A program made the translations under genes and the position numbers. Shown here piece by piece: positions 2,339-59,056 of a stretch of DNA of 64,000 bases. The notes beneath the pieces are model-generated. The model was given only the letters and a program-made list of their open reading frames with translations. It was not told the origin of the DNA and searched no databases. The DNA comes from Schmidtea nova (Eukaryota): positions 292,144,001-292,208,000 of the forward strand of contig CM097882.1 of NCBI GenBank assembly GCA_044892505.1, given 5' to 3'. Each line of letters opens with the position of its first letter. Position 1 is the first letter of the stretch.

Positions 2339-2664
2339 GCAATCAGGACAATCAATAATAAAATAGAAAATATGCTAAATTTAAACAAATTAATCAATAA
2401 TAATCATCTCCATACCATATCAAAATTTTAATTTAAAAAATTTTATTTTATTTTATTACATAAAAATTTTTTAAAATTTAATTATAAACAAACTTTATAC
2501 ATAGAACAACATACGTATTATTTTAAAAATAAAATTTAATTTAATAAAATTTTAATACAACATAAAATTTACAAATTTTAAAATTTAAAAAAATTTAAAA
2601 TTTTTACAAAAAAAAAACAAACATAATTATACCACAAACATAATTCGCAACATTCAACCTTCAG

Positions 2665-4035
2665 TTACTTAAACACATTCAAAATATCAGTGGAACGGGC
2701 AACTTGATCATTTATTTTTGGATTAAAATATCTAATCAACAATGCCTCACAAGTTACTCGTTCCCAATAATTACTTAAACCCTTTGAAATAATTTTAAAA
2801 TCAGAGATACCTATTTTTTTACTGACACATTTCCTAAAATGATCACTAATATTAGTCAATCCTTTTGGTCGGCAATGCTCAAGAACTCGCGTGCAGAGAT
2901 GACGGGCAGTCTCTCCAATGTATGTGGCATTACACCCATTACATGAAAATTGATACACGAGCTCAGAACACAAACCAATTGGCGTTGGACATTTACTAGT
3001 GAACATACTGCTAACTTTGCAAGACGTGGAAACAATCCTAAATTGATCCTTGTCTACATGTTTGAGAATCTTATGCTTAAATTCTCTGAAGCCCTCAGAA
3101 TAAGGCAATACCAACACATATTTCGGCTCCGTGCGATTAGATCGATTTTTGTCACTTTCCGAAATTAACACAGTACTTTCATCAGGATCAATAGGTACCT
3201 CAGATTCAGACATACGCATACCAACATCATCAGATTTCAACATTAACTTATCCACGGTCACTTTTGTCATTTTCTCAAGAAAAGATTTAGAGTAACCGTT
3301 TTTAAGTAACAACTCAACCAATACATCAATACTTTTTACTGAATTCACAAACGTAGAAGATAGTGACCAAGCACGAAACACTAATCCTCTCACCATATTC
3401 CTCTTATATTTAAATTCACAAAAACTCTCCGGCGTTGTATACAAACCAGTATCAGTCGACTTTCTGTATATTTCAGTCTCATAATGTTTCGATTTGCGTT
3501 GAATGAGTAAATCTAAAAACGCAATCGATGATATTTTTTCTTCTTCACAGGTGAATTTAATATTCTCATGCAAATCATTCATAAAATTTAAAAAAGGCAT
3601 TACATGTTCACGACTCTCAAATACTAAAAAAATATCATCAACATACTGTTTGTACACAGTTGGTTTAACAAGATGGCATAAAGACATTTTCTTTTCCAAA
3701 CTAGACATAAAGATGGAAGCCATAGTTGGGGCTAATGGAGAACCCATAGCAACACCATCCACTTGTTTATACCATTCATTGTTAAACAAGAAATTAACAT
3801 TCGACGTCGCAATTTCAAGCAATTTGCGAAACGCAATTTTATCAACATTCTTATGTTCAGATTCATTGTCATTCCACATTTCACAACATAAATCAATCGT
3901 TTCCGCCAATGGAACATTAGTAAAAAGACTACAAACATCAAACGAAACCATAATTTCATCATCAGAACTTTTCTTCAACGCAGCAATAAATGAAGCAAAT
4001 TCAAAGCTATCCTTACATTCAAACTCAGAAATCAT
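2665..4035 (-). CDS. Penelope-like reverse transcriptase + GIY-YIG endonuclease (N-terminally truncated)
   Basis: SFDVCSLFTNVP, GVAMGSPLAP, YVDD, AFLDL, YIGETARHLCTRVLEH and EALLI motifs. Confidence 0.92.
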   Translation of the reverse strand: MISEFECKDSFEFASFIAALKKSSDDEIMVSFDVCSLFTNVPLAETIDLCCEMWNDNESEHKNVDKIAFRKLLEIATSNVNFLFNNEWYKQVDGVAMGSPLAPTMASIFMSSLEKKMSLCHLVKPTVYKQYVDDIFLVFESREHVMPFLNFMNDLHENIKFTCEEEKISSIAFLDLLIQRKSKHYETEIYRKSTDTGLYTTPESFCEFKYKRNMVRGLVFRAWSLSSTFVNSVKSIDVLVELLLKNGYSKSFLEKMTKVTVDKLMLKSDDVGMRMSESEVPIDPDESTVLISESDKNRSNRTEPKYVLVLPYSEGFREFKHKILKHVDKDQFRIVSTSCKVSSMFTSKCPTPIGLCSELVYQFSCNGCNATYIGETARHLCTRVLEHCRPKGLTNISDHFRKCVSKKIGISDFKIISKGLSNYWERVTCEALLIRYFNPKINDQVARSTDILNVFK

Positions 4036-4047
4036 TAAAGGTTTTAA

Positions 4048-4713
4048 AGAGACTGCTCGTCATCTCTGCCCGTCATCTCTGCACGCGAGTTCTTGAGCAT
4101 TGCCGACCAAAAGGATTGACTAATATTAGTGATCATTTTAGGAAATGTGTCAGTAAAAAAATAGGTATCTCTGATTTTAAAATTATTTCAAAGGGTTTAA
4201 GTAATTATTGGGAACGAGTAACTTGTGAGGCATTGTTGATTAGATATTTTAATCCAAAAATAAATGATCAAGTTGCCCGTTCCACTGATATTTTGAATGT
4301 GTTTAAGTAACTGAAGGTTGAATGTTGCGAATTATGTTTGTGGTATAATTATGTTTGTTTTTTTTTTGTAAAAATTTTAAATTTTTTTAAATTTTAAAAT
4401 TTGTAAATTTTATGTTGTATTAAAATTTTATTAAATTAAATTTTATTTTTAAAATAATACGTATGTTGTTCTATGTATAAAGTTTGTTTATAATTAAATT
4501 TTAAAAAATTTTTATGTAATAAAATAAAATAAAATTTTTTAAATTAAAATTTTGATATGGTATGGAGATGATTATTATTGATTAATTTGTTTAAATTTAG
4601 CATATTTTCTATTTTATTATTGATTGTCCTGATTGCCGCCTGACGAAGATTGTTATACAATCGAAATATATCGCGTTTATGTTGAATTTACTGAGTTGGC
4701 GTTTTTCTATAAT
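4048..4713 (+). repeat. Inverted pseudo-LTR copy of the PLE 3' end
   Basis: Reverse complement of 2262..2914; encodes the duplicated GIY-YIG tail in ORF 3990..4310; short CGTCATCTCTGC duplication at the junction. Confidence 0.92.
4637..4675 (+). ncRNA. Minimal type I hammerhead ribozyme in inverted pLTR
   Basis: Identical to 2300..2338 in the opposite orientation (core CTGACGA 4640-4646, GAAA 4663-4666). Confidence 0.85.
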
Positions 4714-4729: not shown

Positions 4730-6865
4730 TTTAATATTTTGTCATTTTTTCAGCTCCTGCGTGGGATAGTAATCCATGCATTACTTTTATCATTTCCCGT
4801 TTCTTATTCTTCGGAATCCATATTTTTTCTTCTTGGTCGTTACTACTCTTCTATCAATATGCATTTCCAACATAACCCTTGTACTATATTTTCCTTTATT
4901 TGTTTTATTTCTTCATCATCTTGTTTTGCCATTTACAACTTTCCGTTTTCTTTATCATTTTTATACGTCGTGTTTTCATTTTCTCGGTCTTTGCATTCTC
5001 GTGATTCAAGAGACATTGTGTACAAGTTCCGCATGTACTTCCTGACAATGCATCGGCATTTGCGTGATTCACTCCCTTTCTGTATTCCATTTTAATGCCT
5101 AGACTACTGAGATGGTTGATCCAAGTCTGAAATTGCGCATTTATTGGCTTTTTTGTGGATAGCATGAACGTGATTGCTTTGTGATCCGTTCTCAACGTAA
5201 ATCTTTTGCCGTACAGGTAGTGGTTAAAATGATGACAAAAGTAGTAAATTGCAAACAGCTCTTTTCTCGTAATACAATACCCTTTTTCATGACTACTCAT
5301 CGCGTGTGACACATATGCGATAACCTTTTCGTAACCATTATCACCTCTTTGTGATAGTACAGCCCCAATCGTATCAAAACTAGCGTCTGTATCTAGGATG
5401 AACTCTCTTGTAAAATCTGGGTATCCTAAAACAGGCGATTCTGTTAGTACCTTTTTCATTTCTTTGAAGGCCCTTTCGCAGTTTTCTGTTCAGATTAATT
5501 TTGCATTGTTTTTTCCACATAATTCCTCCAACGTTCTAGCTTTCTTGGAATAGTCTTTGATAAACCTTCTGTAATAGTTACATATCCCTAAAAAACTCCT
5601 TAGATTCTTTATAAATTTCGGCTTCTGGAATGATTTTATTGCTTCTAATTTTGATGGGTTTTTTTGTATGCCATCCTTGTTTATAATGTGCCCTAGGAAC
5701 TTTAGTTCTCGAACCAGTATATGACATTTTTCTGGGTTTATTCTCAACCCTGCTAGTCTAACTCTTCCTAGTACCTCTTCCAGAACCGTACAATGTTGCT
5801 CTTTTGTCTCTGTGAATACTAAAATGTCATCCAAATAAACAACTGTACCTTTTATTTTTCCTAGTACTTTTCCCATTAACTCCTGAAATGTTCCTGGCTC
5901 CGCCGCTATTCCAAATGGCATTCTGTTGAAACAATATTAGTCAGTCGTGGTTGAAAATGCCGTCTTTTCTTTTGAATTTTCTTCAAGTTCAACCTGATAA
6001 CATTCATTTCCCAGGTCTATTGACGTAAAATGTTTTGCTCCTTCCAATCTATAGAAAATCTCAGCTATATTTGGCATTGGATACACTTGTCTATTTGTAA
6101 CAAGATTTAACTGTCTGAAATCTAGACATAATCTGATGTCTTGTTTATCTTTTTTTCCAGACACAAACCAGCGGCGTATTCCACGATGAATTGAATTTCT
6201 TAATAATTCCATTTTCAAATAAATTCTGTATTGCCTCCTCATTATTTGGTTCTAAATGAACTGGTTGCCTTCGTGGCTTGATATTTATTGGATTCCCGTG
6301 TGTATCTATTTTATGTTTTAACAAAGTTGTGCATCTGATGTCCCATTAGTTTGCCATAAAAACATCCTGATTATTCCTTATAATTTCTGTTAATACCACA
6401 TCGTTTACTTTTAATGCTTTTATTTTTCTGTCCTGTTATCAGTTTTCCAAACTTTGCTTCGATATTACACATGTGTTCATCACTCATTGTTTTTATCTCT
6501 TTCCAAAGCCATTGTATTTGAATTCCAAATTGTTTCCACAACTCTATACCCCCAATCACTTCTGGTGTTATGTGGTTCACAATTGTGAACTTTACCACTT
6601 TGCATATTCCCATTATTTCAACATTCATCATTACTTTACCTTTTGTTTCCAATTCGTTATCATTTGCACATCTTAGAACACTTGCCGTTTTCATCAATTC
6701 AATATTATTAAATTTTTTGTACTGGTTCAAACTCATGACGTTAACCGTTGCCCCTGAATCAAGTAAACAATCCATTTCTTGATTTTGGATTTTAATTACC
6801 ACACTAAGTCTACTTTTCATTATGTCACACTTGATAATACTTGGCCTCATTTTATCTTTTGTCAA
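4730..6865 (-). pseudogene. Gypsy pol (PR-RT-RNaseH-INT start), fragmented
   Basis: ORF pieces 6371..6865, 5937..6242, 5490..5921 and 4905..5459. Confidence 0.88.
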
Positions 6866-10889: not shown

Positions 10890-11750
10890 ATCGAGTTTTG
10901 TAGACAATTAAATTTTATCTATACAATATTACAATGAAAACTCAAAAAAGTTATTTTATTTAGGTGAAATATACAAATATACCTACAAAACACGTGTGCG
11001 CAACCATATACACAACATTTTGAATTTTTAATTCAGCCATTATGTAGACAATACAATTCTGTCTATCTATTGTTTCACTAAAAACTCGATCGGGCCGGTT
11101 TATTGACTCGAAAAAGGTGTTTAAAGTTTTGTAGTAGGAGGCTGTGTCCGGTCCAAACCACTACCCCCCATGTGTGTATGTTACGTAATCGATCGAGGAT
11201 TTATGTAATACACCTGATTACGTAATCATTACATAATCAAGCGTGCTTAATAAAACCTGACAATTATGTAATTTTATATATAATTACGTAATTTCATATA
11301 TTTGTTTAAATTGAGTGAATTTTTTTGTTTAAATTATGTGAATGTTTGTTTTATTTAACTGGAATATTGTTTTAATTAGATGAGTTTTTTGTTTTAACTA
11401 TTTAAAAATATGAAATTTTATTTTAAATTTAATAAAAAAAAATATACGAGTTCACACATGGGGGGGACAGACCGGACACTACCTCCTACTACAAAACTTT
11501 AAACACCTTTTTCGAGTCAATAAACCGGCCCAATCGAGTTCTTAGTGAAACAATAGATAGACAGAATTTTATTGTCTACAAAATGGCTTTATTAGAAATC
11601 TGAAAGTTTTCGTATTTTGCGATGCACACGTGTTTTATTTTGAATTTTCAAACTTTTAACAATATAAAGTAACTTTATGTATTTTTCATTGTAATAAAGT
11701 ATAAATAAAATTTAATTTCCTATAAAATGGCTTGATTAGAAAATTAGTTT
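10890..11750. repeat. Large fold-back (inverted repeat) with 276-bp spacer
   Basis: 11043..11176 is nearly the reverse complement of 11453..11580; weaker similarity extends outward into the 144-bp repeat unit. Confidence 0.88.
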
Positions 11751-12440
11751 GTTGGTGTGTTTGTAATGCACACGTGTTTTGTAATTAATTTTACATTTTT
11801 CATGTATATAAAATAACTTTTTTGAGTTTTGCTTGTAATATTATATGTATAAAATTTAAATGTCTACAAAATGGCTTTATTAGAAATCTGAAAGTTGTCG
11901 TATTTTGTAATACACACGTGTTTTGTAATTAATTTTGCATTTTTCGTGTATATAAAATAAGTTTATTGAGTTTTCATTGTAATAAAGTATAAGTAAAATT
12001 TAATTTCCTATAAAATGGCTTGATTAGAAAATTAGTTTGTTGGTGTGTTTGTAATACACACGTGTTTTGTAATTAATTTTGCATTTTTCATGTATATAAA
12101 ATAAATTTATTGACTTTTCATTGTAATAAAGTATACGTAAAATTTAATTTCCTATAAAATGGCTTTATTAGAAAATCTAAAAGTTGTCGTCTTTCGTGTT
12201 ACACACGTGTTTTGTAATTACTTTTGTAAGTTTTAGTTATTTAAAATAACTTTAGTGAGTTTTCATTGTAATTACATATAGATAAATTTTAATTGCCTAC
12301 AAAATAGCTTTATTAAATTTAAGTATATCGATATGTTTGTGATGCACACGTGTTTTGTAATAAAATACTGGGATTTTTTCGACTATTTAGCATAGATTTA
12401 TCGAATATTTATTGTAATCATGTGTAGATATAATTTTATT
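11581..12440 (+). repeat. Tandem repeat, 144-bp unit, about 6 copies, each with a CACGTG palindrome
   Basis: AAATGGCTT-type starts at 11581, 11725, 11869, 12013, 12157 and 12302 (variant). Confidence 0.92.
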
Positions 12441-12774
12441 TCTATCATAAACTAATGAAAATTATAAAAGTTTTGTGTGTGTTATTGACAATTCTAATGT
12501 ATTTTATCAAAATTAATTAAAATATTTTTTATAACTGACGTAATTATTGAAATGTAATATAATTTCGACGTAATTTACTGAAATATTTAGTCTAATATAT
12601 TTTAATCATATGACATGCATGGAATTCATTGAAATATTTTATAACTTTGATGTGTATTATAATTTGTTGAAATAACTTTTCTAGTTTTTTAAAATACTGC
12701 AACGTAATATATATTTAGTTATAATTCTCTATCATTTCTCTATTTGATGATAATAATACCTTTACTGCCTCTTA

Positions 12775-12870
12775 CTCGAATCTGATTGGCTGATAAGAAT
12801 AAATTTCCTACCCCTTACTCGATTTTTATTGGTCAAAGGTTATGTGTGTGTAATAACTTTGATATATAAA
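12775..12870 (+). promoter_or_regulatory. Putative pPolB-1 promoter: two inverted CCAAT boxes and a TATA box
   Basis: CTTACTCGA...ATTGG repeated at 43-bp spacing (ATTGG at 12785 and 12828); TATATAAA at 12863-12870, about 50 bp before the ATG at 12920. Confidence 0.5.
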
Positions 12871-12919
12871 CAATACTTTTTCATTCATTATTCACTTTAA
12901 CAAATAATAAGCATTTAAA

Positions 12920-15900
12920 ATGAACATTATAACAAGTTTTATGAACGAAAACCCAAGTGGAAAAGAAAATGGTAAATTTATTTTTTAATTTATTATCATT
13001 TAGTATTAATTTAGGTAATATCAATAATTCAATTGGGAAATCGATGTTAGAAAATGCGGAAGAAAATGGTACTTGATCATTAACTTAGTAAATTATTTAA
13101 TTTTTACTTTAGGTGATGTAAATATGACTGGAAAAACTACCGTACAAGCTGAGATTGTTAATAATGAGAATATTGTGAATAATGGAGTTATACCTGATGT
13201 GGTATTGAATGTTCAATGTAAGTTTTGATTAATTTTAATTATTTGATTAACTTTTAATTAATTTAGTAAATAAATATAGTAAAATATTTGTAAATATATA
13301 ATTTGATAATATTATTATTATTTTTAACATTACTTTACATTCATAGGTTCTTTATACCCAAATTATTGCTTTTCAACTGACCACAACGATAATTGTCGTC
13401 GATCAATGGAGCAATATTATGGACACTCTTATTATAAAATTCGCTATTATATATGTCCCGTATGCCAAACTTCCCAACCCTTTACATATAAAAATTTTTA
13501 CGATGAACATAAGGATCATTTAAATGAATATAGGTCTAAGAAAATAAAATTATTTAAAAGACCAAACTTGACTCAAAACCCTATAAATAATAAAAAGATT
13601 AAATTGAACATAGATATAATCAAGAAATCACAAAGTTTACAAGAAGAGATTAAAGACAAGATTTTATTAGAAGCGATGGATGCGGATGAAGCGGATGAAA
13701 ACAAGATTTTAATTGAAGCGGTGGAAGAGATTGAAGATTTTTGGAACGTTGGATTTTATCAAACTGGAGGAAGTGTTATAGAACCTCTCCCTGTCATTGA
13801 AAGTGATTTAAATGGATCGCATAGGATTTTAAAAATTAACACTAGTGATTTAAATATAAAGCAAATTATTTTTCCACAATCAATAATTAATAAATTAATA
13901 GAAATAATTAACGAACTAGGCTATGTGAAGATACAATTTGGTATCTGTGTTGAATTTGAGAAAGATGGAGAAATTAAAAGAAACAATATTTCCAATAGTG
14001 CAAAACCTCTGACACAGACATTTTTCGAAGAGGGAATTAAAAAATTGAATGAAAAGATAACTTCATTTGCGGAATTAGGTAGCAGTTGGGTACTTAATCG
14101 TATTACTGAAAAAAGTTTTGTTGTAACTAAGATTTCCAATATAAGTAGGTTAGCAGGTAGAAGCATTGTAAAAACTCCTGAAGGATTAAAAGGAAAGAGA
14201 TGTATATTAAACATTGATAATAAGGATAATTTATGTTTTTTATATAGCATTTTAGCTATATTAAAATATGATTCAATATCTAGAAATAGAGAAAGAGTAT
14301 CAAAATATACAAATTTTTTGTCAGAGCTCAAATATGATATATCAGAAATGACCATGAAACTAAATAGTATCAGAAAATTCGAGGCAAAGAATCCAGGATT
14401 GATCATAAATGTACTATGTTATAATAATGAAATTAATGAAGAGCAAGATGATTATATTTTAAAGCATCCTCATTTGGATATTATTCATCGGTCCAAAGTA
14501 ATAGAAGGAAAAACTATAAATTTATTGTTATTAAATGAAGGGGAAAAATATCATTATGTATCTATTATAAATTTAAAACGTTTAATGAATTGTCACCAAA
14601 GCATTTATTGTACTACTAGGATAAGAAGTGAATGGTGCAGTAGATGTTTAAATGGTTTCCAAAATAAATTATCGTTGGAAAAACATGAGATTTTATGCAG
14701 AAAAAATCAACTAGGAACAACATTATACACTTTCCCGGAAAATAAAATGCTAAAATCTACAGATTGGTCAAAAACTGTTACCCCACCATTTGTTATTTAT
14801 GCAGACTTTGAATCAATTTTACCAAAGGATGATGTATATTATCAGAAACACTTGCCTATTTCTGCGGGGCTTTTGTTAATAAATAACTTTGATGGGACAA
14901 AATCTTACCAACAATTCATTGGACTAAAATGTGTAGAAGAGTTTTTGACTGAAATCAATGATATAGGAGAAAAAGTAGTTTTACCTTACTTTATAAATAA
15001 TTCCAAAAAGAAAATGGAATATCTTTCTCCTGCACAAATAAGATCATTTCGTAGTTCTATAATTTGTTATTTGTGTAATAAACCTTTGAAAAATCCGGTT
15101 AAAGATCATGACCATTATACAGGTAAATACTTGGGTGCGGCTTGCGCTAAATGCAATTTTTCTCGGCAAATAAGATTCATTATGCCTGTACAATTTCATA
15201 ATTTACGCGGATATGATTTGCATCATATCCTCAAGTATGATTTAAATAAATTCGATAAATGGAATATAAGTTGTATTCATATTACAAGTGAAAAGTTTTT
15301 GACTTTATATGCAAGAGTCGATAGTTTAACTATTAAATTTATCGATTCTTGCCAATTTGTAAGCTCCAGCTTAAACGATGCTGTAAAGACATTAACAGAT
15401 TCTCCTCTTACTTCATCCAAATTTATAGGGACTATAGTTACTTCCAAAGGCATATTCCCATATAATTTTGCAACTTCTTTAGAGGTTTTACAAAATACAT
15501 ACGAGTTGCCACCGATTTGGGAAGGAGTTAATATCGACGAGTATGAAAAAGCTCAACATATATGGGATGAATTTAATTGTGAAACATTGTTTGATTATAT
15601 GATGTTATACCTGAAATTGGATGTTTTCTTACTTGTCGACTTTTTTCAGCAATTTAGGGCAAAATCCATTGCACATAACCGACTTGAGCCTCTTAATTTC
15701 TTGGGAATTCCAGACATGTCATGGAATTCAGCTTTGATGACTTTGAAATCTCCTATCAAATTGCTTCAAGATATGGAGATGTATAATATTTTCGAAGGGG
15801 GGATCCATGGTGGGTTAACATTTGTTAATAAACACCATGTAGTATCCTCCGACGACACTGAGCTTCTTTATATAGATATAAATAATTTATATGGGTGGGC

Positions 15901-17191
15901 TTTAAGCCAAAAACTACCTTATAAAGAATTTAAATGGGTAACTGATAGGGAAAAATTAAATAAAATAATTTATTACTGTGAATCTGCTGATTTAGAAGTA
16001 TTAACATTTGGATTTACATTAGAAGTCAATTTAGAAATTCCTGATTCGATTCACGACAAGTTGGATGATTTGCCAGTTGCCGCTGAAAAGATGTGTCAAC
16101 CTGGCTCAAAGGTTGAGAAGTTGATGCTTACGCATTATCCCAAGAAGAACTATGTTCTTCATTGGAGACTTCTCAAACTTTTTCTTTCTCTTGGAGTAAA
16201 AATAACTCATGTCCATAGGGCAATTAAATTTAAACAAGCATGTATTTTTAAGGATTACATCGATACCAATACCAGACTTAGAGCAGAATCAAGTAATGCT
16301 CTGGGTAAAAATTATTATAAATTATTAAATAATAGTCTCTACGGTAAAACCGTAGAGAATCTTAAAAAGCGCATAAATTTAAGATTATGTAATTCGGCTT
16401 CTAGGCTGATTACATATACTTCTAAGCCAACTTTTAAAAGGACCTTCGAAATTGACGATGATTTGGTTGCCGTCTTGCTGAATCAGGAATCGGTGTGTTT
16501 GGATAGACCCAGCTACATTGGTCAAACTGTACTGGATCTATCTAAACTTAGAATGTACCAGCTGCAGTATGAAGAGTTACAAAAATATCGTAACGAATTC
16601 AACTGCGAAATCAACATAGTTGCTGGTGACACCGATTCGTTTTTTCTTGAGATTAGAAATTGTAAGCTTGATATTCTTTTACCGGCCAAGATAAGAGATA
16701 ACTTACTTGACACTTCTAATTATGACCCGAATCACCCATTATATAGTAGGAACCTTGATTCTGTCATTGGCAAGTTCAAAGACGAGAATAAAGGACTTAA
16801 AGACGAGGAGTGGGTGTTTCTTAGACCTAAATGTTATAGTCTTTTAGGTGACGAGGAAACTAATAAAGCTAAGGGGGCAACATTAGCGGGTACTGACATA
16901 AAGCATCAGTCGTACCTGGACTGTTTTAATAATAACCAAATATTTTCTGTTCCCCAAACGAGAATCACAAGTAAAAATCACCAACTTTTTACTATTAAAA
17001 ATGAAAAGACTGCACTGACAAACGCAGATGATAAAAGGAAATGGGTGGCGAAAAATAAAAGCTTGGCATATGGCCATTATATTGGAGGTGACTTGGTTAT
17101 ATTTCAACATACCAATCCAAGAATCAATCCATATCACCAATTCCAAGATCAAACTGAAGAAGAAACAGTTTTATTAAATAAAATTTGTTGA
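12920..17191 (+). CDS. pPolB: Polinton protein-primed DNA polymerase B, copy 1; predicted 4 exons (12920-12971, 13015-13068, 13113-13217, 13347-17191)
   Basis: Exo motifs YADFES, FHNLRGYD and YLKLDV; pol motifs YIDINNLYG, KLLNNSLYGK and GDTDS; endonuclease-VII-like CxxC...DHDH...CxxC insert. Three GT-AG phase-1 introns join an upstream ATG in frame. Confidence 0.93.
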
Positions 17192-17339
17192 AGAACTTTG
17201 TTTTTAATTATTTAGTTATATATTGTACAGATTAGTTTCAGTCTGTTTTTATAATTTGGGTAATAACTTTTAGAAACTATGGTTACGTCATAGAAATAAT
17301 AGTAATATTATTAATAATAATAATAAATAATTAGTTTAA

Positions 17340-18373
17340 TAAATAAGAGAACACCATTTTTTAAAATATATTAATGCAATATATTTCGACAGCTTAGCTG
17401 TCATCATCAGGCTTTTCACAATCTCAATAAAATAAAAATTGATCTTAATTATACGCTTAATAGTGATTACATAATTACGTGTGCATAATCCAATAAAACT
17501 TTTATTTACCCTAATAAAATTAATTAAACACTCTCAAAATGCATGTAGATATTGCATTTTGTATATTTATTTTAGGATTAAATGATTTTATCATCAAAGC
17601 CTCACAATTCACACGTTCATAATAATTTTTAAATCCACTAGAAAGTATTTTGAAATTAGAAATATCAATGCTCTTCTTGCAAGTCTTATAATGCTCAATA
17701 ATGTTACTCTTTCCGCTCTTTCTGGCATGTTCTTGAACTCGTGTACAGAGATGACGGGCAGTCTCTCCAATGTATGTGGCATTATACCCATTACAAGTAA
17801 AACGATATACGAGATCAGAACACAGACCAAATGGCGTCACAGATTTATTACTGAACATGTCACGAACTTTGCAAGACTTAGAAATTATTTTAACATTAGT
17901 ATTTCCAATATATTTTATAATAGATTTTTTAAAATTTACAAATTTTTATTTAATAGTTTATTTAGATTAGATTGTACTTCAGTTCCAATATTCAAGAGAT
18001 ATTTAAAACTTTACAAATCTGTGAGGAAAAAAGAATTAGATATTTCATTTTTAGAAACGTGTTTGGAAGATCATATGATACCAGCATTTATTTTTAAAAT
18101 GAAATTGAATGATTGCCTACTCGATGATGACGTTCGAATGATTCATCGACGAACTTTAAGGAGAATTTTGGAATTGGAGAAAAGGCGAAGAAATTATCTT
18201 GTTAAGCAACTTTCAGTAGTATGATTGGTCTTGTACGAGGTGATTGGTGATTTTCATTTTTACATGTGCATTAAATCCGTAATTTTAAACTCACAACGTT
18301 GTTTAAGATCAAAAATTGATTGTCAAAATAAAAAAATAAAAAATTTGAGAAAATTGTTTGGTGCACCAAAATG
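17340..18373. mobile_element. Second Penelope-like element: inverted 3' pLTR (minus strand, ~17340-17880) followed by the 5' part of the ORF (plus strand, ~17880-18373)
   Basis: 17520..17858(-) is a GIY-YIG tail homologous to 2665..3040. The plus-strand frame ...ISFLETCLEDHMIPAF...KKIKNL resembles the PLE N-terminal domain. Confidence 0.8.
17376..17412 (-). ncRNA. Minimal type I hammerhead ribozyme
   Basis: gc-CUGAUGA-U-GACAGC(uaa)GCUGUC-GAAA-UAUA-UU-gc. Confidence 0.8.
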
Positions 18374-18374
18374 T

Positions 18375-19004
18375 CAATTAGTTGATGCAAAATTAATGAT
18401 TCGTCGAGTTCGTGTTGAATCATCGGTATTAGCTGGACATCAAATTGGACTAAATTCAAAACATGCAATTTATCCAATGAAAAACAAGGAAATTGTAACT
18501 TTTGCTATAGGCAAAGGGGCTTCATCATTTTACAAAGAACAAATATTTGGAGATAGAAGAATGCCTAATTTTATTCTTGTAGCTTTCCAAAGTGAAACTC
18601 AATACAATGGATCATATAATGCTTCAAGTTCAAAATTCAAACATTTTAATGTAACTTCTCTATCTCTATCGAAAAACACTGATTATCGGGAAACATATAC
18701 TCAAGATTTTGAAAACGATAATTATTGTACTACATACATGCAGTCTATTGTGAGAAATATGGGTTATTTGGATAAAAATTTGAATTGTGGTATAAGTCTT
18801 GCTGATTTTAAAGCAAAATATCCATTCTTTACTTTTGTTTTGGCTCCTGATTTTGATTTAAATCAAAGTCAATTACCTCAAAATGGAAATTTGAGATTGG
18901 ATATAAAGTTTGCAAAAGCAATTGAAGAACCGGTACACGTAATAATATATGGAGTTTTTGAAAATGAAATTCAAATTACGTCTAATCGAACAATACTGGT
19001 TTGA
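18375..19004 (+). pseudogene. Polinton major capsid protein (hexon-like), C-terminal half only
   Basis: LVDAKLMIRRVRV...IYPM...EQIFG..MPNFILVAF...FKHFNV...FVLAPD...GNLRLDIKFAKAIEEPVHVIIYGVFENEIQI matches my recollection of the Polinton MCP C-terminus. The N-half is replaced by PLE sequence. Confidence 0.85.
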
Positions 19005-19059
19005 GCAGAGCTGGTTTGAACTCTCAGTATAAATGAAACAATAGAGTATTAAAATTGTT

Positions 19060-19443
19060 ATGGAGTAAGTCTTTAATATTTTCAAATAAATTAATTTATT
19101 TAGTTCAATTCAGGTAAATCGAATTGGAAAACAATTATTGGGTACTGAATTTATTGGAGTGTATCCATTAGATAAAATCCCGTACTTGGATGACAATCAA
19201 GCTATTATCATCAATACACAGTCATCATCTTTGGGTGGGGAACATTGGATTGCTGTATATGTGAAACCAAACAAGATTCATGTATTCGATCCATTTGGAT
19301 GTTATTATCCAGGTTTATTAGTTAGTAAACTACAAACAATAGGTAAACCGATTGTATATAATAAAATTAGATATCAACATCCACTGACAATTACTTGTGG
19401 TCAACATTGTCTTGCATGTCTAAACTCAATGTTATATCTATAA
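19060..19443 (+). CDS. Adenain-like cysteine protease (Polinton PRO); predicted 39-bp intron 19065-19103
   Basis: GEHW, FDPFG and Q-x6-CG catalytic motifs. ATGGA|GTAAGT...TTTAG|T gives MDSIQVNRIGKQLLGTEFIGVYPLD. TATAAAT at 19028. Confidence 0.88.
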
Positions 19444-19460
19444 ACAATGTAGTTTAATAA

Positions 19461-19895
19461 ATGTTCTTTATAAAAATGACTTGTTATTTTATTGATATTT
19501 ATGGTTATAATGATAATGCAGGTGGATTAATTATTAAGGAATTGTGTATTATGAATGTAAATAATATTTTACGCCCAAAGTATTGGATATATAATGATTT
19601 ACCATTTTGGGCAGGAGTTGAATTTCCTGATCGATTGGAATGGTATGAAGGAGAAGATTATTTTTGTTCAACGTGTATTTTGAATGATATTGAAGATACA
19701 AGTGAAATTTTCTATGTCAGTGATCATGATAAACTTATTATTTTGAAAAAATATTTCCCGAATTTGAGACTAATTAAATATACATTAAAAGAAGCTCAAG
19801 AAGTTCCTGACAATATTTCATGCCCATATCGTGATCATTCTCATTGTGCTTATAAGAATTGTTTGGTTAATGCATTAGATTATTTAAAATGTTAA
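19461..19895 (+). CDS. Small Polinton-associated protein with DEDD-exonuclease-like start and Cys/His tail
   Basis: FIDIYGYNDNAGGLIIKEL motif and CPYRDHSHCAYKNC tail; lies between the protease and pPolB. Confidence 0.55.
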   Translation: MFFIKMTCYFIDIYGYNDNAGGLIIKELCIMNVNNILRPKYWIYNDLPFWAGVEFPDRLEWYEGEDYFCSTCILNDIEDTSEIFYVSDHDKLIILKKYFPNLRLIKYTLKEAQEVPDNISCPYRDHSHCAYKNCLVNALDYLKC

Positions 19896-20328
19896 ATAAA
19901 TATATTTAAATTGTTAAATAAATATATTTAAATTGTAAAATAATGTAATTATCTGAAATAAATGTATTAAATGTTATATTTTTGCAATTCAAATGCAATG
20001 CATATGCAATTCATATCCATGTATTACTCATAGGTTCATTAAAAAGGTCATAATAATAATACACACAGGCATAGGTCATGTTAACACACTTATGCATACA
20101 TACATAATAAATATATAAGCAAACATGCATGTATACACATTACACATACAAACACATTAGTATATCTTGTATAAACATGCATACCATATATATATATATA
20201 TTTTCCTATCCTAAATCGCTTTTCATTGGATGATTATAAATATTGAAAATTATAGTTATATATATACAATATCTTTTACTTTTTATTTCACTTTTACAAT
20301 CTAAATTTCAAACTATATTCAACACAAC

Positions 20329-23300
20329 ATGTTCAACACAATCAATAATATTAAATCAAAGGTTTTTACCAATATGGGTAAATTATTTATTTTATTTTAT
20401 TTATTATTTTAATTTTTATGATTTAGCAGCTTCGGCATCGGCTTTTTCTAATTATCGAGTCAGAAGAAATGTTGTTTTGGGTATTAACGGTAATTTATTA
20501 GTTATATTATTTATAAAATTATTAAAATATTTTAGAGATTAGATCAATTAATGCGGAGCAGATAAGAAACAATGAATCTATTACTACTTGTGATAATACA
20601 ATTAATGATATATCATCTCAAAATATGGTGGCCGAAAATATGACAGTTTACGATATGCCAGCGACGAATATGCTAAGCGGGAATGCCGATATAATAGGCA
20701 ATTTGATGATATTCAATGACAACTGTAAGTAGTATTTTTATTATTTGGTAATTTTATGATTTTAAATATTAATAAATTGTAAATGATTTTTCATTTTTAA
20801 TTAAGAAATTATTATAAAATTTTATACTATATAATAAATTATCATAAAATGTTACAAGTTTATTTTTATAACAAGTATTTTTAATAATAATTAATTTTTT
20901 AATATATATTCAGGCTCATTGTATCCTAATTATTGTGTTTCATCAATGGCACATAATAATCAATGCCATGATCTTATGGCGAAATATTTTCATCATAAGT
21001 TTAATGGCATTGACTTTTTTATATGTCCGAAATGTGAAACATCCCACGCCCAAACCTATTCCGACTTTTATAATGATCATAAAGTTCATCTTTCCCAATT
21101 CTTTAAAAATAAAAAATCCATCTTTAAAAATTCAAATATTATAAATAATATAAATACCATAAATACTAGAAATACTAGAAATACTAGAAATACAAATAAT
21201 ATAAATACTAATAAATACAAAAGACCTGCTGATATTAAAATCAATTACGCGTCAAAGAAAATTAAAAAAGATCTTATTATTATTAGTGATGATGAGGATG
21301 TTGAAATTCAACAACCCATAATTTTAAATAATGAAATTTTAAATAATAATCAAATAGGGGGATCTATTGATTTAGATAGTTCTATCAACATTGATGATGA
21401 ACCTGTTATTGAAACAGATTTAAAAGGAGCTCGTCGAGCATTAACATTTAATATAATTAAATTTAATATTAATAGTATAGTGTTAACAGATAGAATTACT
21501 ACCAGATTAGAAAAAGAAATTAATAAAATGGGGAGTGTTAAAATTCAGTTTGCCGTAAATATAGAGTTTGAGAAAGATGGGGTTTATAAAAATGAATTTT
21601 TATCAAATAGTGCTGAAGTGTTTTCCAATACTTTTTTAATAGAGGGTATTCGGAAATTAAATAAAAAAATTGAAAATTTTACACAAATGGGTAGCGGCTG
21701 GCATGTAAATAAAATTAGGGAAATCCATTTCATTTTAACTAAATATTCATCAATTAATAGATTAACTGAACATGGACACTTTAAAACTCCAAAAGAATTA
21801 AAGGGGAAACGTGCCATTATAAATGTAAACAATTCAGACGATTTATGTTTTATATATAGTATTTTGGCTATATTAAAGCGTAATGAAATAAATAATAATC
21901 AAAATGTAATATCAAGTTACACACAATTCTTAGATGAAATTAATTTTGACCCAATAGATGATTGCCCTATGAAACTCTGTAACATTCCTAAATTTGAAAG
22001 AAATAATCCAGGCTTAGCAATTAACGTATTATCGTATAATCCCACAAATGTTCCTAATGAGGATGATGAATATAATGAAGAATACGTATCTCATCATCCT
22101 CATTTAGATATTATTCATAGAACAAAATTAACCGAATTTACCCCAATTTATTTATTATTATTAGAAAATAATAGGAATTTCCATTATACTGCAGTAATTA
22201 ATTTGCAAAAATTAATGAATTGTCATAAAAATAATATAATAGATGTTAGGATAAGGTGCAATTGGTGCCCAAGGTGTCTCAATGGTTTCCGTCTCCAGGA
22301 AGCCTTTGATCGACATATTGAATTATGTAATAAAAATCAAGTGGGGACAACTTTGTATACCCTTCCCAAAAATAAAAATTTAGAATTTGGTGATTACTCG
22401 AAAACAGTAACACCACCTTTTGTAATTTACGGGGACTTTGAATCAATTTTACCAATTGATGTCCAATACCATCAAAAACATTTACCCATATCAGCAGGAC
22501 TATTATTAGTAAATAATTTTAATAATTCTAATTCATATTTTAATTTTATTGGACCTGACTGCATTTTCGAATTTTTGAAAAAGGTTGAGGAAATTGCTGA
22601 CACAATAGTACTCCCATATTATGAACTACATGGTAAGACTCCAATAAATACTTTATCTTTTGACGAGGAACGGTCTTTTAAAACTTGTTCACACTGCTAT
22701 CTTTGTAAAAAACCTATAAGGAATCGCGTAAGAGACCATGATCACTTTTCTGGTAAATATCTTGGTGCTGCGTGTAAGATTTGTAACGTTTCAAGAAGAA
22801 TTAGAAAACACTTACCGGTTATATTTCATAACTTGAGGGGCTATGACTTACATCACATTTTGAAGTATGGTCTTAGCAGTTTTCCATCTTGGGAATTAAA
22901 TATTATTCCAACAACAACGGAAAAATCTATTTCCTTAATAGCACATATAAATAAACTTGCTGTTCGTTTTATCGACAGTTATCAATTTATAACTGCATCT
23001 TTATCAAATGCAGTTAAAACCATTTCTTCATTACCTTTAACTGCTTCTGCTTTTAGTGGTGCAATCATGGATTGTAAGGGTATTTTTCCTTTCAATTTCG
23101 CGACAAGTTTAGAAATTTTGGAATCGACTTTTGAACTACCACCTATCTGGCCTGAAGTATCTGAGGCGGAGTATATAAAAGCACAACAAATCTGGCGTGA
23201 TAATAGTTGTAATACCTTACTTGACTATATGTTAATCTACTTAAAATTAGACGTATTTCTCCTTGCAGACTTTTTTCAACAGTTTCGTGCAAAGTCCATT

Positions 23301-24836
23301 GCTCACAATGGCTTAGATCCTTTAAATTTTTACGGAATTCCCGGTATGTCATGGGCTTCATCACTTATGACATTAAAGGAACCTATTGAACTTTTACAGG
23401 ACATGGAAATGTATAATTTCTATGAAGGTGGAATACGAGGTGGATTAACATTCGTCAATAAGCACCACGTTGTCACTGACGATAACACAGAGTTGCTGTA
23501 TATAGATATTAATAATCTATATGGTTGGGCTCTTAGCCAAAGTCTTCCTTTTGGTGATTTTAGTTGGATTATTAATGATTTGGATTCTATCTTGACTGAA
23601 TGCATGTCTACGGATATTGAAATCCTTCCATATGGTTACACATTGGAAGTTGATATCGATGTTCCGGAAAGCGTGCATGTGTTTTTGGATGATTTTCCTG
23701 TTGCTCCTGAAAAAATGTGCCCACCTTGCTCAAAAGTTGAGAAGTTGATGCTTACACATCACCCAAAGAAGAACTATGTTCTTCATTGGCGACTTCTCAA
23801 AATGTTTCTTTCTCTTGGTGTAAAAGTTGTTAAGATTCATAGGGCTATAAAGTTTAAACAGGCTAAAATCTTTAAAGAGTATATAGATACAAATACTGAG
23901 TTGAGGGCTAATTCAAATAATGATCTTGATAGAAATTACTTTAAGTTGCTTAATAACAACCTATATGGTAAATCTGTTGAAAATCTGAAAAAACGAATGA
24001 ATTTGCGACTATGTAATTCATCTGAAAAGATGATTATATATTCATCAAAACCGTCTTTCAGAAAGTGCATCAAAATTGATGACAATCTGATTGCAGCTCA
24101 TCTGAATAAAGATTTGATTTGTTTAGATAGACCTAGTTATATCGGTCAAACGGTTCTAGATCTATCTAAACTACGGATGTATCAACTTCAATATCTTGAA
24201 TTACGAAAATATAGGGAACTTTTTAATTGTAAGATTGACATTGTTGCTGGCGACACTGACTCTTTCTTTCTTGAAATTAAAAATTGTAAGTTAAGTACTC
24301 TTTTACCGGCTATGATATCTGATTGTCTTCTGGATACTTCAAACTATGATCCTAACCATCCCTTATATTCAAGAAACCTTGATTCTGTAATAGGAAAATT
24401 TAAAGATGAAAGTAAGGGTCTTGGATATAAGGAATGGGTTTTCTTGCGTCCAAAATGTTATAGTCTTTTAGGTGATGATGAAAGCAATAAAGCCAAAGGG
24501 ATTACATTGCCTGGAACTGGTATAAATCATCAATCTTATATTGATTGTTATAAAAATAATCGCGTTTTTAATGTACCTCAAACACTAATAGGGACTAAAA
24601 ATCATCAATTGTTTACTTTTAAAAATTATAAAACAGCATTAAGTAACAACGATGACAAACGTCAATGGGTGGGGAAAAATAAAAGTTTCGCTTTCGGACA
24701 TTATTTAGGAGTCAATGTCATTATTGATGAAATAGATGATGATCCTAATGATGATGATCCTGATAATAATCCAGATGAAAATCCAGATGAAAATCCGAAT
24801 AATGATCCAGATGAGTTACAATCAGACGAATTTTAG
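20329..24836 (+). CDS. pPolB: Polinton protein-primed DNA polymerase B, copy 2; predicted 4 exons (20329-20377, 20427-20489, 20536-20724, 20914-24836)
   Basis: Same motif set (YGDFES, FHNLRGYD, YIDINNLYG, KLLNNNLYGK, GDTDS); three phase-1 GT-AG introns; acidic D/N/P-rich tail. Confidence 0.93.
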
Positions 24837-24951
24837 ATTATTTTTAATAAATGATGTTAATTTTTATAAAATGCGTTTTCTTTGTTATTATATTAGTGAA
24901 ATATTTATTAAGGTTATTATCCTGTAAGAGTTTTTAAGATAATTAAGTTTC

Positions 24952-25010
<59 letters not shown>
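24952..25010. repeat. (ATT)n microsatellite
   Basis: Direct reading. Confidence 0.95.
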
Positions 25011-25013
<3 letters not shown>

Positions 25014-26760
25014 GACCTAGTTAATTTAAATATTTCTTTTAGCGTATATGACCTTACTTCATTTGTCTTTAAATATATGACCTACTTTAAATATCTACTT
25101 TTTCATATAAAAAGTACCTAATTTGACTTTAAATAAAAAATATTTTTCATATATTAAGTACTTAAATAAAAATATTTTCATATATAACCTACTTTATTTA
25201 AATATATGACCTACTTTATTTGTCCTTAAATTGTCCTTAAATTATAATATTTTAATTTCTCATATATAACCTACTTTATTTGACTTTAAATTGTCCTTAA
25301 ATTAAATTATATTAATTTTTCATATATGACCTACTTTATTTCTCATATATGACCTACTTTATTTTGTCTTAAATAAAAATATTTCATATATGACCTACTT
25401 CATTTCTCATATATGACCTACTTTATTTTGTCTTAAATAAAAATATTTCATATATGACCTACTTAATTTTAAATTAAATAATAATGTCTTCATATATGAC
25501 CTACTTAATTTAAATAAAAATATTTTCATATATGACCTACTTATTTTGACTTTAATAATATTTAATTTTCATATAAAAAGTACCTAATTTGACTTTAAAT
25601 TAAATATTTAAATATATGACCTACTTAATTTCATATATGACCTACTTTATTTGTCCTTAAATTGTCCTTAAATTATAATATTTTAATTTCTCATATATGA
25701 CCTACTTAATTTCTCATATATGACCTACTTTATTTAACCTTAAATTGTCCTTAAATTATATTAATTTAATTTTTCATATATGACCTACTTAATTTCTCAT
25801 ATATGACCTACTTTATTTTGTCTTAAATAAAAATATTTCATATATGACCTACTTAATTTTAAATTAAATAATAATGTCTTCATATATGACCTACTTAATT
25901 TAAATAAAAATATTTTCATATATGACCTACTTTATTTGATAATAAATATTTAATTTTTCATATATGACCTACTTAATTTAAAAATATTTCATATATGACC
26001 TACATAATTTAATTTAAATAATATCTAATTTTCATATAAAAAGTACCTAATTTGACTTTAAATTAAATATTTAAATATATGACCTACTTAATTTCATATA
26101 TGACCTACTTAATAAAAAAATTTTTCATATATGACCTACTTAATTTAATTTAAATAATATCTAATTTTCATACAAAAGTACCTAGTTTTAGTTTAAATTC
26201 AATATTTAAATATATGACCTACTTAATTTAATTTAAATAATATCTAATTTTAGCTTAAATTCAATATTTAAATATATGACCTACTTAATTTCATATGACC
26301 TACTTAATTTCATATATGACCTACTTAATTTAATTTAAATAATATATAATTTTAGCTTAAATTCAATATTTAAATATATGACCTACTTAATTTCATATAT
26401 GACCTACTTAATTTAATTTAAATAATATCTAATTTTCGTATAAAAAGTACCTAATTTTACTTTAAATTAAATATTTAAATATATGACCTACTTTATTTGA
26501 CCTTAAATTGTGCTTAAATATATGACCTACTTTATTTGACCTTAAATTCACCTTAAATAATGACCCTAAAGTGTCCTTAAATCGACCTAGATCTACTTTT
26601 TTGTCCTTAAAGTGCCCTAAAACCATAAATTTGACCTTAAACTCACCTAAAAGTGCCCTTAAAGTGTCCTAAAATCAAAAATTTGACCTTAAATTCACCT
26701 TAAGCGAAAAATTTGACCTTAAAGTGACCTTAAAATGACCTACTTAAAATTTGACCTACA
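25011..26760. repeat. Subterminal array: about 30 ATATGACCTACTT motifs grading into TTGACCTTAAA motifs
   Basis: Counted by eye; AT-rich spacers are themselves reiterated, with a higher-order copy about 400 bp apart (25395-25520 vs 25795-25920). Confidence 0.92.
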
Positions 26761-26769
26761 TAAAAAAAA

Positions 26770-26820
26770 TTTTCCCTGGGGGGGGTTGACCTATATATGA
26801 CGGGGACACATCCTACTACT
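26770..26820 (-). other. Polinton right terminus (5'-AGTAGTAGGATGTGTCC on the minus strand)
   Basis: Ends CACATCCTACTACT; AGT-repeat termini are typical of Polintons; related to the mini-element termini at 56788 and 58980. Confidence 0.8.
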
Positions 26821-33779: not shown

Positions 33780-34560
33780 GTATGAATTCATAATTATTTT
33801 CCATCGTTATTTTAAAAACGTACCAGAACCCAAGTAGCAGTATCTTGGTAGAAGAACATTTTTTTGTGATGGTTTTGGGTGTCAAAGCTTCGTGTTCAAA
33901 CAAGTTGATTTGAAACTTATGTACTTTTGACTTAAAGCCCATCCATACAGATTGTTGATATCAATATACAAAAAAACTGTATCAGCATTTGATTTAACAT
34001 AGTGCTAATTAACAAATGTTAAGTATCCAGCTCTCAATAAGTTGTAGATTTCCATATCCCGGATAAGTTTGACAAGTTTATTCAGAATCATCAATACCGA
34101 ATCCCACGACATACCGGGAATACTCAAGAAATTTAAGGGTTACAATAAATTTTGTGCGATGAATTTAGATCCAAATTGCTGGAAAAAATCAGCACACAAT
34201 AACACGTCTAATTTTAAGTGGACCATCATGTAATCCAAAAGTGAATTACAGTTGGTCTCTCTCCAAATTACTAGAACAATAGCTTATTCCACTTCAATTA
34301 CGTCCTTCCAAATAAGAGGTAATTCAGTTATTGCTATAAGAACATGGGAATATCCCCTTTGTCCACCTAAATTCAGCTGAAGTCAATGGTAAAGATGTTA
34401 AGGTTTTTACAATTCGCTGATTGACCCTGACTATAACATAAATACTTTAATGGTCTGTTATCTCGATTAACTGGTTGACAATATCTACTGTCGAACAGTC
34501 CATGCTCATGCAGTTATACTCTTGCGCATTCTTAAAAATCAACAAATGCGGATCTTGTAG
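33780..34560 (-). pseudogene. Degenerate Polinton pPolB fragment (exoIII to pol motif A)
   Basis: LLDYMMVHLKLDVLLCADFFQQF, PLNFLSIPGMSW, DMEIYN and FLYIDINNLYGWALSQ with stops and deletions. Confidence 0.88.
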
Positions 34561-58980: not shown

Positions 58981-59056
58981 TTTATCATTCAATTGATCTC
59001 ATATCTTTAAAACTCTGTAAATTAATAAATGGTTCAAATTTAGTCTCAATGATGAT

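Follow-up and report, generated by a model that had tools for sequence, protein, structure and literature searches.

An abundant Polinton lineage in the genome of Schmidtea nova carries conserved GT-AG introns in its polymerase, protease and integrase genes, and judging from the sequence it is very probable that these introns are removed constitutively by the host spliceosome. The core genes of Polintons are taken to lack introns, and intact copies are counted in surveys by their open reading frames. Such surveys would overlook an element whose integrase is interrupted by an intron, or record it as dead, yet the family that carries this intron is the dominant one here, with about ten thousand copies. 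The presence of introns implies a passage of the element's genes through the nucleus and the spliceosome of the host, and this is relevant to the question of a transposon or a virus lifestyle. Because splice junctions separate real Polinton transcripts from DNA background, expression of these elements is directly testable.

Introns of two polymerase genes

The window, that is, the whole 64,000-nucleotide stretch of contig CM097882.1 that was analysed, contains two pPolB genes on its forward strand. The first, pPolB-1, follows a predicted Pol II promoter (12785-12870) with two inverted CCAAT boxes, at 12785 and 12828, and a TATA-like box at 12863. Its 52-nt exon 1 opens with an ATG (12920-12971) and is followed by intron 1 (12972-13014, 43 nt), exon 2 (13015-13068, 54 nt), intron 2 (13069-13112, 44 nt), exon 3 (13113-13217, 105 nt), which varies fast among copies, and intron 3 (13218-13346, 129 nt), which interrupts a conserved Cys codon. 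The last exon (13347-17191) encodes a Cys/His module, an HNH-type insert and the Exo I-III and Pol A-C motifs; in the window copy it is a mosaic of two subfamilies. The second gene, pPolB-2, has a predicted Pol II promoter at 20225-20267 (inverted CCAAT box at 20225, TATA-like box at 20257), a 49-nt exon 1 with its ATG (20329-20377), intron 1 (20378-20426, 49 nt), exon 2 (20427-20489, 63 nt), intron 2 (20490-20535, 46 nt, but 47 nt in 29 of 29 other copies read), exon 3 (20536-20724, 189 nt), intron 3 (20725-20913, 189 nt), again interrupting the conserved Cys codon, and a last exon (20914-24836) with all six polymerase motifs and the HNH-type insert. Motifs similar to those of the pPolB-1 promoter precede the ATG in other subfamilies.

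A preliminary description of this DNA had proposed the six introns, and re-reading the sequence bears it out: all six are GT-AG and phase 1, the internal exons (54 and 105 nt; 63 and 189 nt) are divisible by three, TATA-like boxes lie upstream of the start codons, and the third intron splits a Cys codon in both genes (TGT in pPolB-1, TGC in pPolB-2). Intron removal joins the ATGs at 12920 and 20329 to the long reading frames in stop-free frames of 1351 and 1407 codons, whereas the unspliced frames meet a stop at codons 23 and 28, and an in-frame stop is present within each of the six introns. GC content is 6-18% in these introns, as against 24-40% in the exons. Among 200 shuffled sequences per gene, any chain of an ATG and three introns arose in 0 and 1 cases for the two genes, and none reached the real score. 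A scan of the window in both directions gave such a chain at 11 of 5,659 AG sites, and the best 8 of those 11 chains all lie within the two pPolB 5' regions. First exons were set by eye. The splice model missed pPolB-2 intron 1 and predicted excess exons further upstream; what it predicted beyond the promoters was regarded as surplus and set aside. The introns in the pPolB genes are confirmed as an observation.

The leader across copies and subfamilies

The preliminary description had also stated that both genes share one three-intron plan. This holds for pPolB-1 and pPolB-2 and fails for the lineage as a whole, in which subfamilies carry 1, 3, 4 or 5 coding introns, one of them having four phase-0 introns. 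What is kept across the eight pPolB subfamilies compared, which are 52-81% identical, is the position of the last intron. Its acceptor falls at the same phase-1 site, followed by G-pyrimidine, in all 15 motif-bearing loci among the 34 loci read, and wherever another copy offered a usable donor, in 13 of 13 cases, the codon that the intron divides reads TGY, nine of these donors having been called by a splice model without a Cys term and four chosen by eye among the model's strong donors. Relatives L212 and P0122 have a Cys at a similar place within a single reading frame (a weak alignment, E 0.005), and the metagenomic relative L220 has three phase-1 pPolB introns of its own. All six splice dinucleotides are kept in 27 of 29 and 29 of 29 other copies, a weak test because members of one family share 95-99% identity. 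The genome holds no exact match to the family-1 exon 3/exon 4 junction in intron-less form. A homolog search with the pPolB-1 N-terminal region found no homologues, and the Cys/His module gave no usable Atlas match.

Upstream of the last intron, neither the sequence nor the length nor the exon count of the leader is conserved between subfamilies. The changes in family-1 leader exon 3 are almost exclusively non-synonymous, and leader amino acids thus show no visible purifying selection. This fast change would suit an untranslated leader, in which the polymerase starts at a conserved Met of the last exon and the open leader frame is incidental; a Met that could act as a downstream start lies four residues past the Cys/His module in 15 of 15 loci, and in the L167/L178/L200 subfamily the first intron is likely in the 5' UTR. 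Such a reading is nevertheless very unlikely, as the Cys/His residues before that Met and the junction Cys are conserved, and in 12 of 12 genes tabulated the reading frame runs on through the leader exons without a stop.

The internal leader exons are multiples of three with equal flanking phases in every subfamily, including the family-3 penultimate exon, which ranges from 144 to 219 nt and is divisible by three in seven of seven cases; intron lengths, unlike these frame-kept exon lengths, differ by single bases. Symmetric exons of this kind could be alternatively skipped, giving several polymerase N-termini with different roles, and an integrase-trained model scores the donor of pPolB-1 intron 2 (42nd percentile in the window copy) and the acceptor of intron 3 as weak. 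Frame-keeping gain of exon-intron units, however, produces symmetry anyway, and a tandem duplication of one such unit is visible in locus L183 as two near-identical 60-nt exons. As the leader itself is so variable between subfamilies, alternative N-termini are possible but unlikely, and constitutive removal of real introns is the preferred reading.

An intron in the protease gene

Between the two polymerase genes, on the forward strand, lies a putative gene for an adenovirus-type cysteine protease (exons 19060-19064 and 19104-19443), so labelled from its position and from a His-Asp-Gln-Cys motif order. It is interrupted by a 39-nt GT-AG intron in phase 2 (19065-19103), absent from the preliminary description. 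This intron is present in 27 of 28 readable 5' ends, one being atypical, has 10,085 matches in the genome, and occupies the identical place in six of six closer metagenomic relatives. Farther relatives are without it, and their Met-x-Ser/Thr spacing equals that of the spliced product.

An intron in the integrase core

In the integrase, a genome pattern search found the QTDxG-KEF motif interrupted by an intron of 40-48 nt in 10,494 copies. These GT..AG inserts compare with 10,786 matches when the insert is unconstrained, or about 97% (the length ranges differ slightly), and a reversed control gave 0. Retention would introduce a stop or a frameshift for 40 of 42 distinct introns. In a sister integrase family that lacks the intron, 76-82% identical, the motif is contiguous, as it is in 120 of 120 database homologues among the matches listed, although these were called as single ORFs, which biases them toward intron-less genes. 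On a tree of the integrase 3' exon the 20 intron-bearing rows form one clade (100/96), and support for placing the intron-less family as their sister is weak (92/76). Fourteen of the intron-less matches were read. Some come from old families in decay, 68-86% to either panel, others belong to the intron-less family or are unrelated, and no processed copy of an intron-bearing family was among them.

The intron lies between the second Asp and the Glu of the catalytic core, and without splicing the family-2 protein would stop after 139 aa, short of the catalytic Glu. Such an arrangement invites a regulatory interpretation, in which the intron is spliced in stem or germ cells and kept elsewhere to yield an inactive or repressing 139-aa fragment. 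The third intron of the Drosophila P element is reportedly a precedent for regulated splicing, and intron-bearing integrases exceed intron-less ones in the genome by 10,494 to 177. This contrast in copy number has no statistical weight, because intron gain is a single event on the tree. Both splice sites are strong and resemble those of the host, and the interior of the intron is not conserved between subfamilies, contrary to expectation for a regulatory element; regulated splicing is therefore rather improbable, and constitutive splicing is favoured here as for the polymerase.

Could the AT-rich segments instead be insertions, introners or products of decay, that entered dead copies after integration and lie outside the active element? 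Introners are known in dinoflagellate Maverick-Polinton-like proviruses, where the accessible text of PMC11957031 describes them as mostly post-integration. Here, some 10,000 dispersed copies have the segments at identical positions, as do relatives of other origin, the elements have 99.8% identical ends and intact target duplications, and intron interiors differ between positions and subfamilies, so that insertion into dead copies is scarcely credible.

Family 2 as a Polinton

The preliminary description had placed both polymerases in Polintons. This is correct for pPolB-2, which is the end gene of a full-type 17-kb Polinton (family 2). The complete element G of this family has terminal inverted repeats of 1,840 bp (99.8% identical, AG...CT type) with the ends AGTAGTAGG and CCTACTACT, and a 6-bp target-site duplication, GTGCTC, at both sides. 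The left part of the window copy is missing; what is left, all on the forward strand, includes the 3' half of the major capsid protein gene (18359-19004, 99.5% to element G), a small conserved ORF of 144 aa with no Pfam match (19461-19895) and the right terminal inverted repeat (24882-26820), which contains 23-bp arrays, matches both ends of element G and ends in CCTACTACT at 26820.

The gene content agrees with this assignment. With its Exo I-III and Pol A-C motifs, pPolB-2 has 2,409 homologues at E<=1e-30; PF03175 is matched by 5 of 15 close homologues scanned, and pPolB-2 itself has no direct PF03175 match and no PDB sequence match. The integrase 3' exon gives a weak rve_3 match and a chromo match, with PF00665 on all 120 homologues listed for the intron-less sister, and the packaging ATPase matches Pox_A32 (E 2.5e-6). 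A model of the full capsid protein of element G (pLDDT 84) is a double jelly roll whose best fold matches are iridovirus, PBCV-1 and mavirus capsids (E 2e-16 to 1e-13); when viral contigs were scanned with this protein, no relative came up. Candidates for the protease and minor capsid protein are conserved ORFs at the expected places, with no family match to either. Intronless core genes, a reported property of Polintons, are not what is found in the polymerase, protease and integrase here, but intronlessness stands outside the gene-content definition of the group. In a family-2 head-to-head pair (L089-L091) the flanks are mirrored too; it could have come from an inverted duplication in the genome or be an artefact.

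Family 1 as a polymerase-only palindrome

For pPolB-1 the assignment to a complete Polinton does not hold, as the gene belongs to a polymerase-only palindromic element (family 1). In the window, a left-arm remnant on the reverse strand (10896-11176), an inverted repeat of 11453-11727 and 93% identical to the arm of palindrome B, is followed by a non-palindromic central spacer of about 275 bp, which has no strand (11177-11452) and resembles the spacers of palindromes B, C and D, and by a forward-strand tandem array of a 144-bp unit at the inner end of the right arm (11453-12445), an array that lies upstream of 29 of 30 family-1 loci. Whole family-1 palindromes are about 14 kb, each arm of the six that were read holds pPolB alone, and no other Polinton gene occurs within 1.5 kb in any of 30 loci. 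AG...CT ends and 6-bp target duplications were found in 12 of 12 cases with intact ends (10 of 10 pairs selected from a terminus search, plus elements B and C), the other four palindromes examined having given no clean end pair. Because the target duplications are present, an assembly artefact was rejected. Opposite spacer orientations were likewise rejected as evidence of 'flip-flop' isomers, since the arms are identical and orientation is uninformative.

Palindromes with integrase and capsid genes only occur too. That the Polinton has divided into two complementary mirror-image halves, which insert independently and mobilise each other in trans, like a segmented virus, with splicing of the core intron as an on-off switch of the integrase, is rather improbable. 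In the mirror-image half-elements, which carry target duplications, the copying of the element has left its trace; this step is not known to have been demonstrated experimentally.

Probable host splicing of Polinton genes

The introns combine GT-AG ends, host-like size and make-up, and fixed positions with changing interiors, all of which fit U2-type introns, and candidate host introns, four in chaperonin genes, have the same look (46-52 nt, 12-17% GC). In four sequencing runs of unstated kind, with reads over introns and intergenic DNA, the predicted introns were unmatched among 15 joints listed, a result with no weight either way. The suggestion in the preliminary description that the lineage is adapted to host splicing is supported: the junction Cys is conserved across subfamilies, introns also lie in the integrase core and the protease gene, and the lineage likely depends on such splicing.

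Each gene would be read from its own CCAAT/TATA promoter by host Pol II. Splicing would then set a variable, low-complexity leader before the polymerase and form the Cys that opens the N-terminal Cys/His module of this protein, which likely binds zinc, attach Met-Asp/Asn to the protease, and rebuild the QTDxGKEF motif of the integrase. Intron gain was likely stepwise. The protease intron, common to metagenomic relatives, would be early; the integrase intron would have been gained a single time, in the ancestor of the radiation now dominant in the genome; and the leader introns were probably gained repeatedly, partly through tandem duplication of exon-intron units. A likely reason for their persistence is that Polintons are copied as DNA, without a cDNA step that would erase the introns. 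The palindromic derivative with pPolB-1 keeps the same introns and was likely inserted by integrase acting in trans.

Comparison with known systems

A DNA element that would rely on host splicing, be it for the addition of a short 5' exon or for a complete recombinase, has counterparts in the adenovirus E2B pol/pTP genes and in intron 3 of the P element, respectively. Unlike in adenovirus, no leader common to different genes is seen here, and a separate TATA-like box precedes each gene. The palindromes recall the snap-back (hairpin) defective genomes of linear DNA viruses and plasmids, in which one end is mirrored around a short spacer; unlike those genomes, they are integrated, with target duplications, families of their own and open genes.

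A literature search for conserved spliceosomal introns in the core genes of animal Polintons turned up no paper, although supplements could hold intron-bearing gene models. In the accessible text on vertebrate and nematode Polintons or Mavericks, core genes are stated to be intronless, and introns are reported in nematode cargo genes (PMC8097293, PMC10748475, 10.1101/2022.07.12.499685). As far as these accounts go, the elements described here share with them terminal inverted repeats, a 6-bp target duplication and a size of about 17 kb, together with pPolB, an rve integrase with a chromodomain, a packaging ATPase, a predicted protease and a double jelly-roll MCP, and differ in the conserved introns of the polymerase, protease, integrase and one small gene and in the half-element palindromes. 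By their motifs, the polymerases resemble the pPolB2 class (PMC10748475) and 'Beta' adintovirus PolB (PMC8502044) as outlined in the accessible parts of those papers, which make no mention of spliceosomal introns in these genes: six motifs, an endonuclease VII/HNH-type insert and the lack of a direct PF03175 match are common to them, and the N-terminus here, unlike theirs, is predicted to be a spliced leader plus Cys/His module. The introner-bearing dinoflagellate proviruses also have intron-type sequence inside a Polinton-like element (PMC11957031, accessible text). Those introners are recent transposon insertions, whereas the introns described here are fixed, conserved in position, and common to subfamilies and to relatives outside this genome.

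Conserved introns in the polymerase genes

Both pPolB-1 (window 12920-17191), the polymerase gene of the palindromic family 1, and pPolB-2 (20329-24836), that of the full family-2 Polinton, contain Exo I-III, Pol A-C and an HNH-type insert in a long ORF, and each had been described as preceded by three introns. The six introns (12972-13014, 13069-13112 and 13218-13346 in pPolB-1; 20378-20426, 20490-20535 and 20725-20913 in pPolB-2) are GT-AG and phase 1 when checked on the sequence, the internal exons measure 54 and 105 nt and 63 and 189 nt as claimed, and intron removal links the ATGs at 12920 and 20329 to the long ORFs with no stop between. Without splicing, the frames terminate at codons 23 (pPolB-1) and 28 (pPolB-2). 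Intron GC is 6-18%, as compared to 24-40% in exons. Under a splice-site model trained on integrase introns only, all but one of the six donors and all but one of the six acceptors exceed the 93rd percentile among all GT/AG sites of the window, the weak sites being the pPolB-1 intron-2 donor and intron-3 acceptor. A three-intron chain is possible at 11 of 5,659 AG sites, the top 8 all lying inside the two pPolB 5' regions, and none of 200 shuffles per gene equalled the real intron-chain score.

Within families, all six splice dinucleotides of a gene are kept in 27/29 and 29/29 other copies, but at 95-99% identity these make a weak test. A cross-subfamily comparison took in 34 loci picked for differing integrase introns, 15 of them with a readable pPolB start. 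The last-intron AG acceptor occupies the same phase-1 place in all 15, followed by G-pyrimidine, and the split codon is TGY in each of the 13 with an assignable donor (nine from the model without a Cys term, four by eye among its strong donors), extending beyond the window the claim that this intron splits a conserved Cys codon. No usable upstream exon exists at L176 or L182, and locus L197 is degraded. The three-intron architecture, by contrast, holds for pPolB-1 and pPolB-2 but not across eight subfamilies with 52-81% identity in the Exo I region, where coding introns, all GT-AG, number 1, 3, 3, 3, 3, 4, 4 and 5; exons are open and frame-keeping in 12 of 12 genes tabulated, first exons having been assigned by eye for both tallies. 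The last intron is always phase 1 and ranges from 129 to 1,158 nt among subfamilies, and one exon, 144 to 219 nt long, is a multiple of three in 7/7 copies. One Polinton locus of this genome, L183 (element orientation 5304-6109), has five introns in its leader, of which four are phase 0, and two near-identical 60-nt exons, which from the sequence likely represents intron gain through tandem duplication, seen in progress.

Since relatives L212 and P0122 encode a Cys at a similar place inside a single frame, the Cys formed at the splice junction probably acts as first ligand in a zinc-binding module. The metagenomic relative L220 (minus strand, contig end) has three phase-1 AT-rich 5' pPolB introns of its own at other positions, and the distant metagenomic relative L285 has AT-rich acceptor-like stretches at the pPolB 5' end.

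Introns in integrase and putative protease genes

In the full family-2 reference Polinton, element G, a 44-nt GT-AG segment (L084:4417-4460) interrupts the integrase motif QTDLG-KEF at its Gly. This phase-1 core intron (40-48 nt, in the Gly of QTDxG-KEF) has 10,494 genome matches, and a reversed-pattern control had none genome-wide. An insert of unconstrained sequence at the motif gave 10,786 matches, of which the first 100 comprise 99 GT-AG and one GC-AG. Retention introduces a stop or frameshift in 40 of 42 distinct introns collected, with loss of the catalytic Glu. The contiguous motif has 177 genome matches, mostly from one family whose integrase is 76-82% identical to intron-bearing ones and is read across the motif without interruption. 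In a 47-row tree of the integrase 3' exon, excluding copies with the exon broken before 190 residues, all 20 intron-bearing rows form one clade (support 100/96), with the intron-less family as its weakly supported sister; the single clade suggests that the integrase intron was gained once.

The intron of the putative protease gene (37-40 nt, phase 2, just after the start codon; window 19065-19103 in the family-2 Polinton) has 10,085 genome matches and is present in 27 of 28 readable 5' ends, the remaining one being atypical. It occupies the identical place in six of six closer metagenomic relatives; farther relatives lack it and have the start spacing of the spliced product. Four candidate host introns resemble Polinton introns in size and composition. 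A small conserved gene (L084:1742-2146, minus strand) has an AT-rich GT-AG segment behind a short ATG exon in several subfamilies.

The full Polinton and its palindromic derivatives

The surrounding genome is AT-rich and comprises 1.25 Gb. pPolB-2 lies at the right-hand end of a complete Polinton: window 18359-26820 aligns with element G (~16.9 kb, terminal repeats of 1,840 bp, 6-bp target duplication). Besides pPolB and small ORFs, element G encodes a TBP-like protein, ATPase, integrase, a putative protease, and both a major and a putative minor capsid protein, the major one predicted to adopt a double jelly roll. Another Polinton gene lies upstream at 29/30 family-2 loci. The TBP-like gene (L084:2212-2700, minus strand; Pfam TBP, E 1e-16) also occurs in other subfamilies, and the element's own genes have TATA-like promoters.

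Close pPolB-1 copies are frequently arranged as head-to-head pairs. Six such pairs are palindromes of 13-16 kb whose arms are ~98.5-99.9% identical, each arm carrying pPolB alone (L031-L048, e.g. G000:C1:598005642-598020094); the polymerases point outward from a central region of 144-bp arrays and a short spacer. The array lies upstream of 29/30 family-1 loci, and another Polinton gene of none of the 30. Ends read AGTAGG...CCTACT, and 6-bp target duplications flank 10 of 10 end pairs picked from a terminus search and likewise palindromes B and C, the other four palindromes giving no clean end pair. The end motif has 218 exact genome matches, and one family-1 element lies inside another Polinton. 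In the window copy (10896-17191), the right end and most of the left arm are missing. Its pPolB-1 is mosaic (11565-17341), 94% identical to main family 1 up to 14946 and then nearer another subfamily, its reading frame remaining open.

A second palindrome family (L186-L191; G000:C1:17243516-17257751 and a second copy; 14.2 kb) has genes for ATPase, integrase and capsid proteins in both arms, no polymerase, and the protease in the spacer; arms are 99.8% identical, and both copies have 6-bp target duplications. The protease intron is present and the integrase intron absent. Its end sequences differ from those of family 1 beyond the first six bases, so a partnership between the two families is speculative.

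Further degraded polymerase and capsid fragments lie at window 1694-2151 and 33909-34410 (minus strand), 58981-59666 and 59981-60193. We take the reverse-transcriptase element at 2262-4713, which contains a perfect inverted repeat of 648 bp, and the related fragment at 17520-18224, after pPolB-1 and before the capsid gene, to be Penelope-like by layout. The window also encodes a nuclear-receptor zinc finger, which indicates an animal host. A chaperonin C-terminal fragment (Cpn60/TCP-1 positions ~347-488) has dozens of dispersed genome copies, often 4.5-5 kb apart, which suggests carriage by a repeat.

Expression and origin

The sequence establishes where the introns lie, that they are conserved, that retention removes the catalytic Glu and that the ends are intact, and it is very probable that the introns of this lineage are spliced. 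Against this reading count a downstream Met conserved in 15/15 loci and a leader exon with rapid non-synonymous divergence. Leader exon 3 (window 13113-13217) shows 1-12 base changes relative to other family-1 copies, nearly all non-synonymous, and diverges more than its flanking introns. The proposal of a Polinton lineage adapted to host splicing is partly supported, by the conserved introns of pPolB, integrase and protease; a fixed three-intron plan is not. Host Pol II would transcribe the genes from CCAAT/TATA promoters, with constitutive splicing; introns may have been gained stepwise and retained because Polinton replication has no cDNA step. Alternative splicing, or a switch like that of the P element, would be less probable. 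Palindromes could have arisen through fold-back copying of one element end and been inserted by integrase acting in trans.

Comparison with published Polintons

In the portions of the literature surveyed, vertebrate and nematode accounts describe core genes as intronless: intact vertebrate Mavericks are without introns, consistent with Kapitonov and Jurka 2006 (PMC8097293), and nematode introns are confined to cargo (10.1101/2022.07.12.499685). The available text of PMC8502044 does not mention spliceosomal introns, and that of PMC6431247, PMC11296320, PMC2646287, 10.1101/2024.01.15.575659 and 10.1101/2024.03.25.586562 contains nothing on core-gene introns. HNH-bearing pPolB2 was defined in PMC10748475, where filtering was by ORF length, and a flatworm preprint reports Maverick expansions, its available part not giving gene structure (10.64898/2025.12.11.693146). 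Searches of the main text of open-access articles and preprints turned up no account of spliceosomal introns conserved in core genes of animal Polintons, nor of half-element palindromes. Dinoflagellate elements carry introners, mostly later insertions (PMC11957031), and cryptophyte elements carry group I introns (PMC12220804). The elements described here are a real and new Polinton variant, with conserved host-type introns in core genes, very high copy number, and both polymerase-only and integrase/capsid-only palindromic derivatives.
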